A stretch of 64,000 nucleotides of DNA from positions 128,001 to 192,000 of the forward strand of contig JBEKSS010000003.1 of assembly GCA_049516875.1 (NCBI GenBank), written 5' to 3'. Below, in pieces: positions 8,409 through 15,040 of the stretch. Position 1 is the stretch's first letter. Every line of letters starts with the position of its first letter. The notes under the pieces were generated by a model. The model ran no database searches. It saw only the letters and a list, made by a program, of their open reading frames with translations, and was not told the DNA's origin. Both the position numbers and the translations under genes were made by a program. The DNA is from Candidatus Bathyarchaeia archaeon (GTDB lineage Archaea; Thermoproteota; Bathyarchaeia; Bathyarchaeales; Bathycorpusculaceae).

Positions 8409-8837
8409 ATGCAACTTCTAACGTTAAAGGGCCGAAAAATCGTGGAAGGAACATGTACGTCAGAAGCCCTTGTGAGCACAAAACCAATCAGCTTTTTGGG
8501 CGGAGTTGACCCGGCTGACGGAAAAATAATTGAAAAGAACCACGACCTCTGTGGCGCATGTATAAAAGACAAGGTTCTGGTCTTCCCACACGGACACGGC
8601 TCCACGGTGGGCAGCTACGTGATGTACTCATTGGCCAAGAAAGGCTTAGCACCCGCAGCCATCATCAACCAAACAGCCGACCCCGTGGTTGTGGTCGGTG
8701 CGATTATAGCTAACATCCCGATGATAGACCGAATCGACATTAAACAAATTAAAACAGGCGACACCGTTGAAGTTGACGGCTACAAAGGCGTCGCAAGAAT
8801 CTCAAAACAGAAGGAGAACCGAAGCGCGTGTACTTGA
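8409..8837 (+). CDS. Aconitase X swivel subunit (DUF126), probable phosphomevalonate dehydratase small subunit
   Basis: ISFLGGVDP.DG, GHGSTVGSYV, GAIIANIP; overlaps the large-subunit gene. Confidence 0.88.
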   Translation: MQLLTLKGRKIVEGTCTSEALVSTKPISFLGGVDPADGKIIEKNHDLCGACIKDKVLVFPHGHGSTVGSYVMYSLAKKGLAPAAIINQTADPVVVVGAIIANIPMIDRIDIKQIKTGDTVEVDGYKGVARISKQKENRSACT

Positions 8838-10000
8838 CGCAAGAGGAAGAGCGCGTTTGCGACGGCGAGAGCGGCTGGGCAAACCAGACCTGCATGGAAA
8901 TACTCGTACGTTTGGGCGAGCTGTTCGGTGCAGATAAACTCATACCAATAGCCTCAGCACATGTTTCGGGAGTCTCATACAAAACACTGGGCGACGCCCC
9001 AATCGAGTTTCTGAAAGCCCTAGCTGACGATGACGCGAGAGTAAAAGTCAGAACCACTTTGAACCCGCAAAGCCTTGACTCCCAGTACCTTGTGAAGAGA
9101 CTTCCAAAGCGTCTACGGGAGCCCCAATTAGATATTTTGAAGCAGTTTGAAAAAATGGGTTTAACACAGTCTTTGACGTGCACACCGTACTACTTGCAGA
9201 AGCCAAAACGCGGCTCACACCACGCTTGGGCCGAGTCTTCAGCCGTGGTCTACGCCAATTCAGTCTTGGGCGCATGGACAAACCGTGAGGGCGGACCGAG
9301 CGCCCTTGCGGCAGCGATAATTGGAAAGACACCAGATTATGGAGTTCACAAAATGGAAAACCGGCAGCCAAACGTCACGGTGAATGTGGAGACTGTGCTG
9401 CGAAACGAAACAGAACTCGGAGCACTAGGAATCCTTTTGGGCAAAACGCTGGGAAACAGAATACCAGCGATTCAAGGCCTGCCAAAAACCTCAAAAGACG
9501 ACTTAAAGCAGGTTTGCGCCGCCCTTGGTACTACAGGAATGGCAAACATGTTTCATCTCAACACAGGCCCGAAGAGCAAAGGAACCGAGAGGATAAGTGT
9601 GGACCGACAGCAGATCAAACATACTATCGGAGAACTGTCCACAGCCTCAACCTCTAAGCCTGACTTGGTCTTTCTCGGATGCCCACACTGTTCGCTGAAC
9701 GAGGTGAAACGAATCGCTCAACTTGTCGAAGGGAAGAGAGTGAGAACTGGAACGGAGTTTTGGGTTTGCACCTCCTGTCACGTCAGACGAATGGCCGGTG
9801 ACTGCGTGAAGAGGATAGAAAGGGCTGGAGGACACGTGCTCGATGGCGTCTGCACGGTCGTCTCATGGACCGAAGAACTTGGAATAAAAAGGATAATGAC
9901 AAACTCGGCCAAAACAGCCTATTACGCGCCCACACTGAACAAGGCTGAACCCCTACTTGCGCCACTGCAAGACTGTCTGAAAGCAGCGTTGCAAGGATAA
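8828..10000 (+). CDS. Aconitase X catalytic subunit (DUF521), probable phosphomevalonate dehydratase large subunit
   Basis: HVSGVSYKT, TCTPY, WAESSAVVYANSVLGAWTNREGGPSAL, GCPHCS, MTNSAK. Confidence 0.9.
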   Translation: MYLTQEEERVCDGESGWANQTCMEILVRLGELFGADKLIPIASAHVSGVSYKTLGDAPIEFLKALADDDARVKVRTTLNPQSLDSQYLVKRLPKRLREPQLDILKQFEKMGLTQSLTCTPYYLQKPKRGSHHAWAESSAVVYANSVLGAWTNREGGPSALAAAIIGKTPDYGVHKMENRQPNVTVNVETVLRNETELGALGILLGKTLGNRIPAIQGLPKTSKDDLKQVCAALGTTGMANMFHLNTGPKSKGTERISVDRQQIKHTIGELSTASTSKPDLVFLGCPHCSLNEVKRIAQLVEGKRVRTGTEFWVCTSCHVRRMAGDCVKRIERAGGHVLDGVCTVVSWTEELGIKRIMTNSAKTAYYAPTLNKAEPLLAPLQDCLKAALQG

Positions 10001-10127: not shown

Positions 10128-10463
10128 CATTATTCAGCCTTAATTCGCACCTATTTTGTCCAAAAAGGCTCAGTTTGAGTTGCTTTGGAAGCATGGCTGA
10201 AATCGGAGCGCGACTTTACTGGCAAAAACATTCAGAATTCACCATGATTCCGCTTCTCTCTCAACTTGACGGCAGGAGTCTCGAACTCCTCGGATAGCGA
10301 TTAGTGGTTGAAAAACCAGCAACTCTGATTCAGGCAGCCGAAGTTAGTTAAACATTTTCGCAGCAGGCATCTGATGAAACTATTGAACCTGAATGTATCA
10401 AACTCAACATTCAAATACAAGTGCGAACTATCGAGTAAGCTTCAAAGGGGAAGGTGGAAATCA

Positions 10464-11999
10464 ATGGCCAGGAATTTGGTGTCAGACTACAAGAGGCTGA
10501 TGGAGAAAGCCAAGGACCTTGCTGTTTTGCAGTCAACGGAATCTATTATGGGCTGGGATATGGAGACGATGATGCCGCCGAAGGCCATCAAACTGCGCAG
10601 CCAGCAACTCTCCTTGCTCAGCATAGTTGAGCACAAGATGAGCACTGACCCAGAGATTGGAGCCTTGCTGCAGGAGGTCAAACGAAACTCAGAATATGAC
10701 AAGCTTGACGAGGTGCAAAAAAGAAACGCCTACCTCATACAGAAACGCTACGACGAGCAGACGAAGCTTCCCGAAGAACTTGTGGCGGAGATTGCAAAAC
10801 AACAGGCCTTGACCATTGACATATGGAAGAAGGCCAAAGCGGCCAAGGACTATTCCATGTTCAGGCCAGAACTTGAGAAACTTGTTGAACTGCAAAAGAA
10901 AGCCGCAGGCATTTTGATGAAGGTGAAAGAAACGGCAACACCCTACGACGCGCTGATAGACATTTACGAAGCCAAGATGACCGCCAAGGCAATCACCAAG
11001 ATCTTCGATGAGCTCAGAGAAGGACTGGTTAAGCTGCTGAAAAAGTGCCAGAGTTCTCCTAAACAGCCGGATCCAAGCATTCTGAAGCGCAACGTCCCAA
11101 TTGACGTACAACGCAAGATTGCAGTGGCACTCGCAGAAGCCGTGGGATACGATGTGACTTCAAAACAGGCAGGAGGAAGAATCGACACCACTGAGCACCC
11201 GTTCACGACAGGCTACTACGACGACGTGAGAATAACCACGCACTATTATGAGAATCTCTTCGCGTCCTCCATCTTTTCAGTTCTGCATGAAGCAGGACAC
11301 GCCATGTACGAACAGAACCTTAGGCAAGAGTGGATGTACCAACCGGTCGGCAATGCCGCCTCATCCGGCTTCCACGAGTCTCAATCCCGCGTGGTGGAGA
11401 ACATGGTGGGCCGATCACGCGAGTTCTGGACGTATTTTCTGCCAAAGCTCAAACAAGTTGCCGGCAGCACACTGTCAGGGTTGGAACTGGACAAGTTTGT
11501 TCACGCCATAAACCAGGTCAAACCCTCAAAAATCCGCGTTGAGGCAGACGAAGTCACGTACGGACTACACATAATAATAAGGTTCAACATTGAACGCGAC
11601 CTCTTCACCAACAAAATAGCTGTCAGGGAACTCCCTGAAATATGGAACCAAGGCTACGAAGAATATCTAGGCATAAAGGTTGAAAACGACTCTGAAGGTG
11701 TAATGCAAGACACTCACTGGGCCGGCGGAATGTTTGGCTATTTCCCAAGCTATGCGTTGGGCAACATCTACGGCGGACAAATACTCGCGGCGATGGAGAA
11801 GACTTTGCCAGACTGGCGAAAACGGCTAGCGAAAGGCAACTTCAACGACATGAAACAGTGGCTCAACAAAAACGTTCACAGCCAAGGATACCTCTACGAC
11901 CCCGCCGACCTTATCAAGAAAATTGCCGGAACAGAACTAAACATCAAACCGTACTTAAGCTACTTGAACGAGAAGTACTCGGAACTCTACGGTTTCTAA
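10464..11999 (+). CDS. Thermostable carboxypeptidase, peptidase family M32
   Basis: HPF, DVRITT, HEAGHA zinc motif, HESQS, IRVEADEVTY, GVMQDTHW, GYFPSYALGN. Confidence 0.95.
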   Translation: MARNLVSDYKRLMEKAKDLAVLQSTESIMGWDMETMMPPKAIKLRSQQLSLLSIVEHKMSTDPEIGALLQEVKRNSEYDKLDEVQKRNAYLIQKRYDEQTKLPEELVAEIAKQQALTIDIWKKAKAAKDYSMFRPELEKLVELQKKAAGILMKVKETATPYDALIDIYEAKMTAKAITKIFDELREGLVKLLKKCQSSPKQPDPSILKRNVPIDVQRKIAVALAEAVGYDVTSKQAGGRIDTTEHPFTTGYYDDVRITTHYYENLFASSIFSVLHEAGHAMYEQNLRQEWMYQPVGNAASSGFHESQSRVVENMVGRSREFWTYFLPKLKQVAGSTLSGLELDKFVHAINQVKPSKIRVEADEVTYGLHIIIRFNIERDLFTNKIAVRELPEIWNQGYEEYLGIKVENDSEGVMQDTHWAGGMFGYFPSYALGNIYGGQILAAMEKTLPDWRKRLAKGNFNDMKQWLNKNVHSQGYLYDPADLIKKIAGTELNIKPYLSYLNEKYSELYGF

Positions 12000-12305
12000 T
12001 CAGACACGCACCTCGCCTGAGGCAAGCATATTCCCAGAAACACGTATATGAAAATCCTTTCGGCAAACAAGCCCAAACACACCAACCGACAACAGCGCCT
12101 GCTATAGACTCAAATCCGAACCCAAAACGACAGACACCGGCGCACAAACCGCTTTGGACACACGCCACAACCAACCTCAGATAGCCAGGCCTCTTTAAGC
12201 TTTCCAGCGCACTTGCAGACAACGTCACGAACGTGCCGAAAAAGCTTCGACGCCCTCATCTCATACCGACACTCCAATGCACAATCGTCCAACACTTGAC
12301 TTTTG

Positions 12306-12334
12306 CACTGTCTGTTTCCGACAGTGTTATATAC
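12306..12334 (+). promoter_or_regulatory. Palindromic operator-like site CACTGTC-N7-GACAGTG adjacent to a TATA box (TTATATAC) upstream of fae-hps
   Basis: Perfect 7-bp inverted repeat at 12306-12312 and 12320-12326; TATA at 12327-12334; ATG at 12369. Confidence 0.6.
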
Positions 12335-12368
12335 ATGGTACGCATTCGGATAGCATGTGTGATTGTAA

Positions 12369-13823
12369 ATGTCGGAACACAACGTGAAAAAGCCGGAAAC
12401 AAGAGAAGAGTTTATCGACATGCTCGTGGGAGCCGCGAAGAAAGCTGCTGAAGACCGCGGTGTCCCGAAAGCTAAACCGACAAAACCCACAGTTCTTGGA
12501 ACGGCTGACGTATTAAACATACATAGAGACACCCTTTATGCGTGGCTCAAAGAGTTCAATGTTGATTTCAAAGAGATATCAGACAATCTTCCGACAGATG
12601 TTATGTCGGAATATGGAGATGCAAAGGGGAGGGTTTATTTGATTGGGGAAGCCCTTGTCGGAGAAGGCAATGAAGTTGCCCACATCGATCTTCTAATAGG
12701 CGACAAGAACGGGCCGGTCGGAGACGCGTTTGCTCAAGGCATGTGCAATCTTTCGGCAGGACACACACCGCTTTTGGCGGTAATACGTCCCAATCTTCCT
12801 CCTAAACCGTACACGCTTCTCGTGCCCAAAGTCACTACAAAGAATATCGAAGATGTGAACAAGATCTTCGGCCCCGCTCAGGCTGCAGTGGCGAAGGCCG
12901 TTGCGGACGCCGTTGAAGACGGAATAATTCCAAAAGACAAGATTGATGATTGGGTGATCGTGTGCAGTGTCTTTGTTCATCCGGCAGCAAGCGACTTTCG
13001 AAAGATTTATCAGTACAATTACGGAGCAACGAAGCTGGCTTTGAAACGGGCCCTAGCGAAGTATCCGTCGTTGGAGAAGATGTTCTACGACAAGGACAGA
13101 GCCAAACACCCGATAATGGGATTCAAAGTGCCACGTCTGTGGCGACCGCCATACCTGCAAATCGCACTTGACAATCCTGAATTGGACAGTGCAAAGAAAG
13201 TCATAGCTCAGCTACCGGGAAGCGACAGGATAATCATCGAAGTGGGCACGCCGCTTATCAAGAGATACGGAACAAAAGTGATAAACGAACTCAGAGAAGC
13301 GGCCAAGAGCATGTTCTTCGTTGCAGATCTTAAAACACTGGACGTTGGAAAAGTCGAGGTTGACCTTGCCTACGACGAAACAGCAGACGCCGTGGTTGCC
13401 GCAGGACTCGCGCCCCCAGAAACCCTCGACGCATTCATCCACGAAGCAAAAAGACTGGCAACGTACGCGGTCGTGGACATGCTGAACGTGGAAGACCCCC
13501 TTAAGAAGCTAAAGTCTCTCAAAGAATTTCCAGACATCGTGATTTTGCACAGAGGAATTGATCAAGAAACGGGAAGAGCACACGGACTTGAAATCATCCC
13601 CGAAATACGCCAAACATTCAAGGACAAGAAATTCCTCATCGCCGTAGCGGGCGGAATAGTGCCGGAAACGGCAAAAGAAGCCCTGCAAAAAGGTGCAGAC
13701 ATAATCATCGTCGGACGATACATAACCCAGTCAAAAGACATTGAACGCGCAGTGAGAGACTTCCTAGAAGCAACACCCGAAATGCTAGAAGACATCGACC
13801 TGTTCAGGGTGCACGTAGAATAG
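12369..13823 (+). CDS. fae-hps: Bifunctional formaldehyde-activating enzyme / 3-hexulose-6-phosphate synthase with an extra N-terminal HTH domain
   Basis: Fae domain (IGEALVGEGNEVAHIDL, GHTPLLAVIRPNL, FGPAQAAVAKAV, YNYGATKLA) followed by Hps (PYLQIALD, IEVGTPLIKRYG, ADLKTLDVG, HRGID, VAGG); about 80-aa N-terminal extension with an HTH pattern. Confidence 0.92.
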   Translation: MSEHNVKKPETREEFIDMLVGAAKKAAEDRGVPKAKPTKPTVLGTADVLNIHRDTLYAWLKEFNVDFKEISDNLPTDVMSEYGDAKGRVYLIGEALVGEGNEVAHIDLLIGDKNGPVGDAFAQGMCNLSAGHTPLLAVIRPNLPPKPYTLLVPKVTTKNIEDVNKIFGPAQAAVAKAVADAVEDGIIPKDKIDDWVIVCSVFVHPAASDFRKIYQYNYGATKLALKRALAKYPSLEKMFYDKDRAKHPIMGFKVPRLWRPPYLQIALDNPELDSAKKVIAQLPGSDRIIIEVGTPLIKRYGTKVINELREAAKSMFFVADLKTLDVGKVEVDLAYDETADAVVAAGLAPPETLDAFIHEAKRLATYAVVDMLNVEDPLKKLKSLKEFPDIVILHRGIDQETGRAHGLEIIPEIRQTFKDKKFLIAVAGGIVPETAKEALQKGADIIIVGRYITQSKDIERAVRDFLEATPEMLEDIDLFRVHVE

Positions 13824-13843: not shown

Positions 13844-15040
13844 TTATGCAAAGAGTTTGAAGAAAACGAATGCAACGAAGAAGATTAAGCCAGCAACGAC
13901 AAATACGTCAAGAAAACCCAAAGCCTGGGCGATGAAAGGACCTGCAAAGGAGCCGAAGGCTCCTCCCATGCCTATCAAAACATTGATCAAACCCGCCTTG
14001 CCCGCTGGTATGAGCTCCATTGACAATGAGAGAATATGCACCATGAAAACTGCAAAGAGAAACCCCATCAGAATCAGAATACCAGTTGTTAGCAGCACGC
14101 TAAAAGATGAGACCTGCAGAGCTGCGAGCAGTGTGAAGGCGAGTAGACCTCGACCCAACACCAGCCCGCCTACGAAGCGTTTTCCATTCCACTCTTCCGA
14201 CCTTCTGCCGACCAAGGTGTAACCCGTTATGGCTCCTCCGGAACTCAGAACGAAGATAGCGAAGACAACCCCTGCTGGCAAGTCTACGGCGATATGGTTA
14301 ACGAAAACGGGAAGAGGCGTGAACAATATACTCGTGGCCAGCGAGAAAAACACGAGTCCACAGCAGAAGGCGGTCACGTTCTCCCTTTTCAACCTTTCAT
14401 CCAGAGCCATGCCATCCATCATCTTTGAAGCCAGAAAAATGCCATGAGACGCAAAGTCAACAGTCTTCTCAATGCTAACCAAGCTTCTTTCAAAAACCAA
14501 AGGCGGGTCTACCACAAATATTGCAGAGAGAACAAAAGCTACCAAGTTCAATCCTGCGACCAAAAACAGCGTGTTAGCTGTACCAAAGCCGTAAGTTGAG
14601 GCGAAGAAGCCTAACACTAGGCCGATTAGCGATCCGACCTCCGTGAAACCTTCATAGAAAGCAAAGTTCTTTCTCCACTCGTGATGAGAATACAGTTCAG
14701 AGATCAGGACGTTCTTAGGAGCCTCGTGAGCCACGTGGAAAATGGACATCACTGCATAGAGCACAGTCAACAGGACGATGTCTTTAGTAAAGGTGAAGAG
14801 GCAGAGCATGACGGTTGAAGCGAGGAATGCGAGAAGGATGTAGCGTTTGTAGTGCCTTGTTTTGTCGCACAGGTAGCCCCAGAAGAATGAGGCTGGGATA
14901 GCTGCAAACAGGGCGATACCGGCCATCACTCCGACCCAGAACAGCCCGTCAGCCTCCCTTATTAAAACCACGTACAACGGCAGGAAAATGGACAGTAACC
15001 CGAAGCCCATTTCGTGGAAGAAGAACCCAAGCCGCCACAT
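13844..15040 (-). CDS. MFS transporter
   Basis: About 12 TM segments in a 6+6 arrangement; WGYLCDKTRHYK resembles MFS motif A. Confidence 0.88.
   Translation of the reverse strand: MWRLGFFFHEMGFGLLSIFLPLYVVLIREADGLFWVGVMAGIALFAAIPASFFWGYLCDKTRHYKRYILLAFLASTVMLCLFTFTKDIVLLTVLYAVMSIFHVAHEAPKNVLISELYSHHEWRKNFAFYEGFTEVGSLIGLVLGFFASTYGFGTANTLFLVAGLNLVAFVLSAIFVVDPPLVFERSLVSIEKTVDFASHGIFLASKMMDGMALDERLKRENVTAFCCGLVFFSLATSILFTPLPVFVNHIAVDLPAGVVFAIFVLSSGGAITGYTLVGRRSEEWNGKRFVGGLVLGRGLLAFTLLAALQVSSFSVLLTTGILILMGFLFAVFMVHILSLSMELIPAGKAGLINVLIGMGGAFGSFAGPFIAQALGFLDVFVVAGLIFFVAFVFFKLFA

Follow-up and report, generated by a model that had tools for sequence, protein, structure and literature searches.

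Why would an enzyme of formaldehyde metabolism carry an additional N-terminal domain of the DNA-binding type, and why would copies of one six-letter word crowd around the start of its gene? Both questions are raised by a gene in the window analysed here, a stretch of 64 000 nucleotides from a Candidatus Bathyarchaeia archaeon (contig JBEKSS010000003.1, positions 128 001–192 000 of the forward strand), which encodes a fusion of Fae, the enzyme that condenses formaldehyde with tetrahydromethanopterin (H4MPT), and Hps, which interconverts hexulose-6-phosphate and ribulose-5-phosphate plus formaldehyde. The Fae-Hps gene is the open reading frame 12369–13823 on the + strand, which codes for 484 amino acids and contains TVLGTADVLNIHRDTLYAWLKE; the enzyme domains begin only past residue ~90, leaving an N-terminal extension of 89 residues. 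We regard it as probable that the product is a bifunctional protein, in which the Fae-Hps enzyme is joined by a flexible linker to a small N-terminal helix–turn–helix (HTH) head and regulates its own gene. Comparative sequence analysis establishes the fusion and its conservation, the kinship of the head with HTH domains, a private array of boxes at the promoter and the co-variation of head and box, and we infer that the HTH heads of the oligomeric enzyme would bind these boxes, which read CCGACA.

The body of the protein, from residue 90 to residue 483, matches the Fae/Hps equivalog model NF009833 from end to end (model positions 2–390 of 392; 581.1 bits, with a curated cut-off of 274) and contains both domains of the bifunctional family. 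In this respect it is like the methanogen Fae-Hps; unlike it, the protein carries an 89-residue extension for which the model has no room. Both halves contain many invariant columns among 29 orthologs, a pattern that argues for an active enzyme.

Conservation further indicates that the extension is real and is translated as part of Fae-Hps. Full-length matches, covering residues 1–484 or beginning at residue 2–5, were found in 32 of 41 related genomes, with the enzyme and the DNA-binding-type domain in one open frame free of stops. In a 33rd relative (G025) the contig stops within the gene; what appeared there to be a standalone copy of the 89-residue extension was rejected, its frame running off the contig end. 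The extension is conserved across one Bathyarchaeia order. In an alignment of 30 orthologs residues ~1–70 can be aligned throughout, with 12 invariant columns (Met1, Pro9, Pro40, Thr41, His52, Arg53, Asp54, Thr55, Leu56, Trp59, Val65 and Phe67), and residues 70–89 differ in both sequence and length. At least 614 clusters of a large protein collection carry the HTH extension; all 120 of these that were listed have a Fae domain, and nearly all have the Hps (OMP decarboxylase) domain too. A search of species genomes confirmed 335 of 346 candidate stretches, and the best 80 loci were kept for the locus counts; by record title these belong to Bathyarchaeia or Bathyarchaeota, except for one Crenarchaeota and one uncultured archaeon. 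The start codon is ATG in 72 of 77 loci and GTG in five, and a Shine–Dalgarno-like four-letter word lies at −18..−4 in 67/77, compared with 12% of random 15-nt windows. Both the conserved start codon and this word speak for a true start at 12369 rather than at 12603, a later position that the first-pass annotation of this DNA had considered. As a separate observation, two of the 80 species loci (L050 and L103) have in-frame stops that break the frame within the linker joining the HTH head to Fae; these are either real split genes or assembly errors.

What, then, is the head? A profile built from 30 extension sequences and searched against 1.84 billion representative proteins returned 94 matches at E ≤ 0.001. 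Part of these are short fragments of the same Fae-Hps gene; others are proteins with 3–7 tandem domains of the HTH_23, HTH_28 or HTH_Tnp_1 type (E down to 3.6e-19), and further matches are small-terminase-like proteins of ~150 residues from the GP3_package family (PF16677; E about 1e-4 to 1e-7), nine of which were scanned and gave PF16677 matches of their own with E between 6.7e-10 and 3.8e-24. Because the profile matches both HTH_23/28-type and GP3_package proteins, the head is placed by sequence as a diverged member of the transposase/terminase-type HTH group. AlphaFold2, supplied with a 30-sequence alignment, predicts helices at residues 12–29, 42–48, 53–62 and 67–73, of which residues 42–62 form the HTH (helices 42–48 and 53–62 at pLDDT 77–86); the models of the isolated domain (mean pLDDT 65.8) and of the full-length protein (82–86 over residues 41–70) agree on the helices. 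In a VIA-align comparison of folds (Z 4.4–6.5), HTH DNA-binding domains that belong to regulators or sigma factors (AraC, sigma region 4, TetR N-domains) make up nearly all of the 50 best rows, alongside a small terminase and one protein of transposition. The profile-level sequence homology is the stronger evidence for an HTH than these fold matches. The proposal of the first-pass annotation that an HTH is fused to the N-terminus of Fae-Hps is therefore upheld, by sequence comparison, for a conserved and translated domain of the DNA-binding type. Its label 'Fis/TetR-like' finds no specific support: PF02954 (HTH_8) and PF00440 (TetR_N) were not listed at E ≤ 1, TetR N-domains are among the weak fold neighbours of the head (Z 4.4–5.4), and the head is followed by Fae-Hps and not by a TetR ligand-binding domain.

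The second part of the question concerns the DNA. Exact copies of CCGACA or its complement TGTCGG lie at 12266, 12318, 12370, 12477, 12591, 12604 and 12656, that is, seven boxes within 396 nt where 0.15 would be expected at the genome density of 0.39 per kb (Poisson P 3.5e-10, or ~2e-6 after multiplication by the number of such spans), which makes this cluster the densest such span in the 2.43-Mb genome. All three box pairs of the genome that are spaced by exactly 52 nt lie at the fae-hps locus, direct copies 52 nt apart occur at 12259/12311 and 12604/12656, and the boxes upstream of the TATA box and on the start codon form part of an inverted repeat, TTCCGACA/TGTCGGAA, with arms at 12316–12323 and 12370–12377. 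Two of the boxes, 12591–12596 (+) and 12604–12609 (−), fall in the linker-coding stretch, together with a non-conserved internal ATG at 12603.

The arrangement recurs in the species loci. CCGACA-N2–4-TATA is present in 78/80, the TATA box being conserved in orthologs as TT(A/T)(A/T)ATA at −46..−39, and (A/G)TGTCGG covers the start codon in 77/80; the two boxes are 49–55 nt apart, mostly 51–52. Upstream, + boxes occupy the distal position (−106..−95) in 31/80 loci and pile up again at −160 (8/80) and −214 (12/80). Downstream, 88 + boxes were counted at +92..+121 across the 80 loci, with further accumulations of + boxes at +206..+223 (47/80) and of inverted boxes at +230..+247 (31/80) and +344..+355 (25/80). 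The boxes are separated by steps of about 52–54 bp, equivalent to five helical turns. Across the same loci there are 12 boxes per kb of promoter, 11.6 per kb over the first 270 coding nucleotides and 0.91 per kb in the remaining gene and flank. The in-gene copies come at a cost in codon choice: Pro-Thr is encoded as CCGACA in 41 of 60 cases in the extension, where the genes' own codon use would predict ~12%, and in three of 21 in the enzyme part, while the codon of Ser2 is TCG in 28 of 30 orthologs, though TCG makes up only 99 of the 478 Ser codons of these genes.

The pattern CCGACANNNTTWWATA (CCGACA-N3-TATA type) occurs once in this genome. Among the 41 related genomes it has 35 matches, of which 32 lie 36–60 nt upstream of the fae-hps start, so that 32 of the 33 relatives having the gene display it there; the exception (G029) has CCGGCA. 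Seven of the eight related genomes without the gene show no match, and the eighth (G035) has two stray ones. The stray matches, two in G035 and one in G010, precede unrelated genes without TGTCGG at the start and are within the control rate, a reversed pattern having given 12 matches in the 41 genomes against three off-target matches of the real one. The idea that CCGACA beside TATA is a generic TFB recognition element (BRE) of the lineage was rejected, there being one match per genome. The genome-wide scan thus bears out the suggestion that the motif belongs to the gene itself: the box array at its own promoter is conserved and genome-unique, as a specific operator should be.

The form of the operator differs from what had been envisaged. 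All the sequence features named in the first-pass annotation exist where it placed them, and its idea of operator-like elements stands in so far as a box array unique to the gene's own promoter travels with the HTH, but the conserved units are single boxes and not palindromes. The palindrome CACTGTC-N7-GACAGTG is present (12306–12312 and 12320–12326, 7 nt between the arms), but as an operator it is not supported, since the left arm is found within one mismatch in none of 78 related loci. A second palindrome exists in this genome as ATCTTCCGACA/TGTCGGAATAT (12586–12596 and 12604–12614) and is likewise doubtful as an operator, with a counterpart in 9/80 loci. Of the recurring half-sites, those at 12266, 12318 and 12370 are exact, whereas that at 12289 (CCAACA) is degenerate and not at a conserved position; the exact boxes 12477 and 12656 were absent from the list. 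When conservation upstream of orthologs is considered, it is accordingly the single CCGACA box (78/80), and not the palindromes, that is retained. Two side observations concern the same words. The sole other dense cluster in the genome (contig C10, 26738–26839) comprises five CCGACA copies with an exact 24-nt period and resembles a tandem repeat. A further perfect 8-nt inverted repeat, TGTTTCCG/CGGAAACA, at 12313–12320 and 12394–12401, has arms separated by 73 nt and shares letters with the proximal box.

The relationship between head and box could be followed beyond the order. Of 251 genomes sampled across the class, 127 have Fae-Hps, and for 40 genes belonging to lineages outside this order the 5′ ends were compared with the 80 loci for three patterns: CCGACA-TATA, GTGWCAC-N6-GNCACR and at least two TTGCGGCA-type boxes. 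Twenty loci have no N-terminal extension, with only 3–19 open codons ahead of the Fae core, and none of them has any of the three patterns. Eighteen loci carry a ribbon-helix-helix (RHH) head and have GTGWCAC-N6-GNCACR in 14 cases (17 if relaxed) and neither of the other two. Two loci have a second type of HTH; both have the TTGCGGCA-type boxes and neither has the other patterns. The 80 loci with the HTH described here have CCGACA-TATA in 78 cases, GTGWCAC-N6-GNCACR in none and the TTGCGGCA-type boxes in one.

The RHH head, found in families f15, f18, f21, f24, f33 and f34, is an extension of ~50 residues with the consensus RAPGRITxEQYxFLExLVxxGRYxSVSEAVRAAI. PF03693 exceeds its cut-off of 21 in two of five heads scanned (22.4 and 21.4 bits), RHH_1 reaches 19.7 against 20.5, and a profile of 18 sequences matches the ParD structures 3kxe (E 3.8e-5) and 7b22 (6.4e-4), which assigns these heads to the CopG/ParD group. 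They occur in at least 78 protein clusters, all with Fae, nearly all with Hps and mostly of ~448 residues. In the promoters with GTGWCAC-N6-GNCACR the box sits 10–14 nt upstream of TTAAATA. It was found exactly once per genome in all five genomes tested, at the fae-hps promoter, with no control matches; because the pattern was derived from those same promoters, only the absence of other copies is informative. One RHH-type locus (L153, genome G107) is without the GTGACAC box and has instead a palindrome, GTGGTAC-N4-GTACCAC, upstream of its TATA box. The second HTH type, from family f17, exceeds the cut-offs of HTH_7 (26.6 against 23.8) and HTH_23 (26.1 against 24.6), and its TTTGCGGCA-type boxes are found immediately after the TATA box as well as upstream; in a third f17 genome (G100) both the head and the TTTGCGGCA-type boxes are missing.

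By this comparison of sequences, headless genes are boxless, and three head types correspond to three private box types. One enzyme with three heads and three private boxes may be regarded as a natural experiment, and one that supports autoregulation: that one DNA-binding fold should take the place of another at the same terminus of the enzyme, with a new operator at the promoter on every occasion, would be difficult to understand if the head did not bind there.

If the heads do bind, the proximal box, at the BRE and TATA box, and the inverted box, just downstream of the expected transcription start, would bracket the core promoter. From the usual archaeal distance between TATA box and start, transcription would be expected to begin 11–15 nt before the ATG, which would put the inverted box at roughly +14..+20. 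Because the boxes overlap the BRE and flank the expected start, the bound protein would hinder TFB/TBP or RNA polymerase, and would most likely repress its own gene. Occupancy would probably depend on the state of catalysis in the Fae-Hps body or on the ligands bound to it, candidate ligands being formaldehyde, H4MPT species, hexulose-6-phosphate and ribulose-5-phosphate, and the level of the enzyme would then track demand, by analogy with PutA, BirA and RbkR. Repression, as the sign of regulation, and the effector are guesses.

Several points weigh against autoregulation by the head. Among sequencing runs searched for the stretch, no RNA run was listed as containing it, and one run of uncertain kind shares 5% of its words. 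Taken as a single sequence, the extension reaches the curated cut-off of no Pfam or NCBIfam model; its highest match is HTH_23 (E 0.0038, 17.4 bits, cut-off 24.6), GP3_package (PF16677) follows with E 0.038 and 14.6 bits against 29.4, which is short of membership, and the others are HTH_29, HTH_28 and excisionase (0.051). A Foldseek search of the head against the PDB gave nothing at E ≤ 0.001, a sequence search of the PDB with the HTH profile gave weak matches only (best the phage protein 2ao9, E 0.12), and the VIA Z-scores fall in the range that the tool calls common. A box of 6 bp is short for a specific site of a monomeric HTH. The regulon would comprise one gene: the gene resembling 6-phospho-3-hexuloisomerase (PHI) has a lone TGTCGG ~130 nt upstream and no array. 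The box patterns of the RHH and second HTH types were defined after inspection of those same loci, and head type is confounded with lineage, for which reason the co-variation counts as perhaps three or four evolutionary events and not as 120 independent loci. The PHI-like gene itself, the best match to TIGR03127 (contig C1, 200170–200735, − strand), is split over two frames (82.6 and 66 bits, both below the 160-bit cut-off), through either a frameshift or an assembly error.

Autoregulation by the fused head may also be set against other explanations of the same data. A separate transcription factor might bind the CCGACA boxes, the fused HTH serving some other purpose, for example to tether the formaldehyde-scavenging enzyme to the nucleoid or to mediate protein contacts. 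Boxes and HTH are both lineage traits, which could be co-inherited without interacting, and the shortness of the box for one HTH would be accommodated. However, the box type switches with the head type (0/20, 14–17/18, 2/2 and 78/80 in the headless, RHH, second HTH and present types), the boxes extend into the HTH-coding DNA and bend its codon usage, and the recognition helix (His52–Leu56 and Trp59) and the box are both invariant; we therefore consider a separate factor unlikely.

A more elaborate version of autoregulation is likewise considered unlikely. Fae is pentameric and HUMPS-fold enzymes dimerize; if both hold here, each particle would have many heads, an arrangement that would fit single half-sites phased along the same face of the DNA. 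The protein might then be a metabolite-gated factor on an oligomeric core, whose flexible heads each grip one of the ~53-bp-phased boxes from about −214 to +350, a head having been captured at least three separate times (HTH, RHH and second HTH), on each occasion with a private operator. The promoter DNA would then wrap around the enzyme particle, or be zipped to it, in the manner of a small terminase at its packaging site. Should this wrapping and capture prove correct, a self-sensing enzyme for formaldehyde and pentose homeostasis would be a recurrent solution in the class.

It is improbable that the extension is a structural or oligomerization module and CCGACA an unusual core-promoter element, for example a BRE variant for one TFB paralogue. 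The failure of the extension alone to reach any Pfam cut-off, the weak fold matches and the overlap of the proximal box with the BRE position would all agree with it, but the profile finds homology to HTH domains among 1.8 billion proteins at E as low as 1e-19, in other lineages an RHH or a different HTH, each a classical DNA-binding fold, occupies this position of the enzyme, and a BRE variant leaves the boxes at −104, +1, +108 and +222 unexplained. The suggestion of the first-pass annotation that the gene yields two isoforms, with ATG 12369 starting a long, HTH-bearing form and ATG 12603 a short, enzyme-only form under the second palindrome, is very improbable. Both ATGs do read ATGTCGGAA in this genome, the palindrome spans 12586–12614, and GGGGAGG (12626–12641 region) stands 5–6 nt before an in-frame TTG at 12639 (Leu91), where the Fae core begins. 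Of the 30 orthologs, however, this genome alone has Met at residue 79, a start codon with a Shine–Dalgarno-like word is found in the linker in 13/77 loci, near the 12% background of the word alone, and a CCGACA-N5–9-TGTCGG palindrome is present in 9/80 loci only; because Met79 is unique and the linker signals are at background, the idea is left without comparative support. The GGGGAGG word, considered by itself, resembles a ribosome-binding site. Hardly credible, finally, is action of the boxes in the mRNA, where CCGACA at +108 would pair with UGUCGG on the start codon and so hide it from the ribosome. The words do complement each other and each is conserved, but those CCGACA copies with the highest conservation are upstream of the TATA box, where they cannot be transcribed with the gene, the fold of the 146-nt 5′ region is no better than that of shuffled sequences (z 0.07) and its minimum-energy fold leaves the two words unpaired, so that the constraint is seen to act on the DNA.

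Features of the Fae-Hps gene and its promoter, in window coordinates
Feature	Position	Strand	Remarks
Distal CCGACA box	12266–12271	+	Near −104 relative to the start codon; the proximal box is 52 nt away
Proximal CCGACA box	12318–12323	+	Followed after 3 nt by the TATA box; overlap with the BRE position
TATA box, TTATATA	12327–12333	+	Read from the sequence
Shine–Dalgarno-like GTGAT	12359–12363	+	5 nt before the ATG
N-terminal HTH domain	12369–12587	+	Residues 1–73; HTH proper, residues 42–62 (12492–12554)
Inverted box TGTCGG	12370–12375	−	Over codons 1–3 (ATG TCG G..); 52 nt from the proximal box
In-gene CCGACA box	12477–12482	+	+108; encodes Pro-Thr of KPTKPT
Variable linker	12588–12635	+	Residues 74–89; sequence and length vary; pLDDT <50 at residues 76–87
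Fae domain	12642–13118	+	Residues 92–250; PF08714 3e-70, TIGR03126 1.9e-76
Inverted box in first Fae codons	12656–12661	−	Exact TGTCGG site
Hps domain (OMP decarboxylase/HUMPS fold)	13149–13760	+	Residues 261–464; PF00215 4.8e-34, TIGR03128 7.4e-40

The gene is unaccompanied. Upstream, an M32 carboxypeptidase gene on the same strand (10374–11999, 2.9e-183) ends at 11999, and downstream a gene for a transporter of the major facilitator superfamily (13844–15040, 3.7e-28) converges on it; an aconitase X gene (PF04412, 1.1e-138) lies at 8828–10000, and none of these three neighbours has an evident tie to one-carbon metabolism. Elsewhere in the genome a second copy of Fae forms the C-terminal part (2.4e-60) of a 492-residue fusion with a DHDPS-family domain (PF00701, 1.6e-80) at L154:1520–2998 (−), which corresponds to about 52.0–53.5 kb of contig C5; similar frames of ~495–505 residues occur in many relatives.

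Bathyarchaeia are among the most abundant uncultured archaea of sediments and soils, and to our knowledge almost nothing is known of their gene regulation. The locus offers a concrete, testable candidate pair of regulator and operator, a 73-residue domain and a 6-bp box, for which no culture is needed. If the proposed autoregulation is true, the handling of formaldehyde and other one-carbon units and the synthesis of pentoses would be tied to gene control through the enzyme itself, and Fae-Hps with its three kinds of head offers a system in which to study how enzymes become regulators. Hundreds of database entries named 'bifunctional enzyme Fae/Hps' carry an unannotated, predicted DNA-binding domain. 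A literature search, with supplements outside its reach, found no paper on a DNA-binding domain of Fae-Hps, and the passages on fae in one report treat it as a plain enzyme (PMC10321748). The category is not new, because enzyme-regulators are already a known kind; Fae-Hps as such a regulator, a phased array of single boxes running into the DNA that codes for the head, and three-fold swapping of heads were not found in print.

Among known systems, the GP3_package (PF16677) small-terminase-like proteins are the closest sequence relatives of the head, and the small terminase of phage P22 (3p9a) is in the list of VIA fold matches with Z 4.8. Small terminases assemble into rings whose DNA-binding domains lie at the periphery and engage repeated sites; unlike them, the Fae-Hps head is without an oligomerization core or phage context and is fused to a metabolic enzyme. 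The bacterial enzyme-repressors BirA and NadR, which carry an N-terminal HTH and bind one palindromic operator as ligand-induced dimers, share with Fae-Hps the architecture of an N-terminal HTH followed by an enzyme and the proposed logic by which the state of the enzyme would set occupancy, but no conserved short-spacer palindrome is found at fae-hps. An archaeal precedent is RbkR, a riboflavin kinase and regulator in which a winged HTH is fused to a kinase domain, several riboflavin genes including its own form the regulon, the operators, identified through comparative genomics, differ from lineage to lineage, and DNA binding, documented by electrophoretic mobility-shift assay and a co-crystal with DNA, is tuned by substrate and product (PMC5397151). 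Fae-Hps differs in that its array lies only at its own promoter and in being known here from sequence alone. PutA of Escherichia coli and Salmonella combines an N-terminal ribbon-helix-helix with proline dehydrogenase and P5C dehydrogenase and represses its own locus through several short copies of its operator. Fae-Hps is like PutA in being a metabolic enzyme with a small N-terminal DNA-binding domain and several short boxes at its own gene; unlike in PutA, the enzymes are unrelated, the head described here is an HTH, and the boxes are single 6-bp words ~52–54 bp apart that run into coding DNA. In the RHH-headed Fae-Hps of other Bathyarchaeia, both the fold of the head and its position are the same as in PutA.

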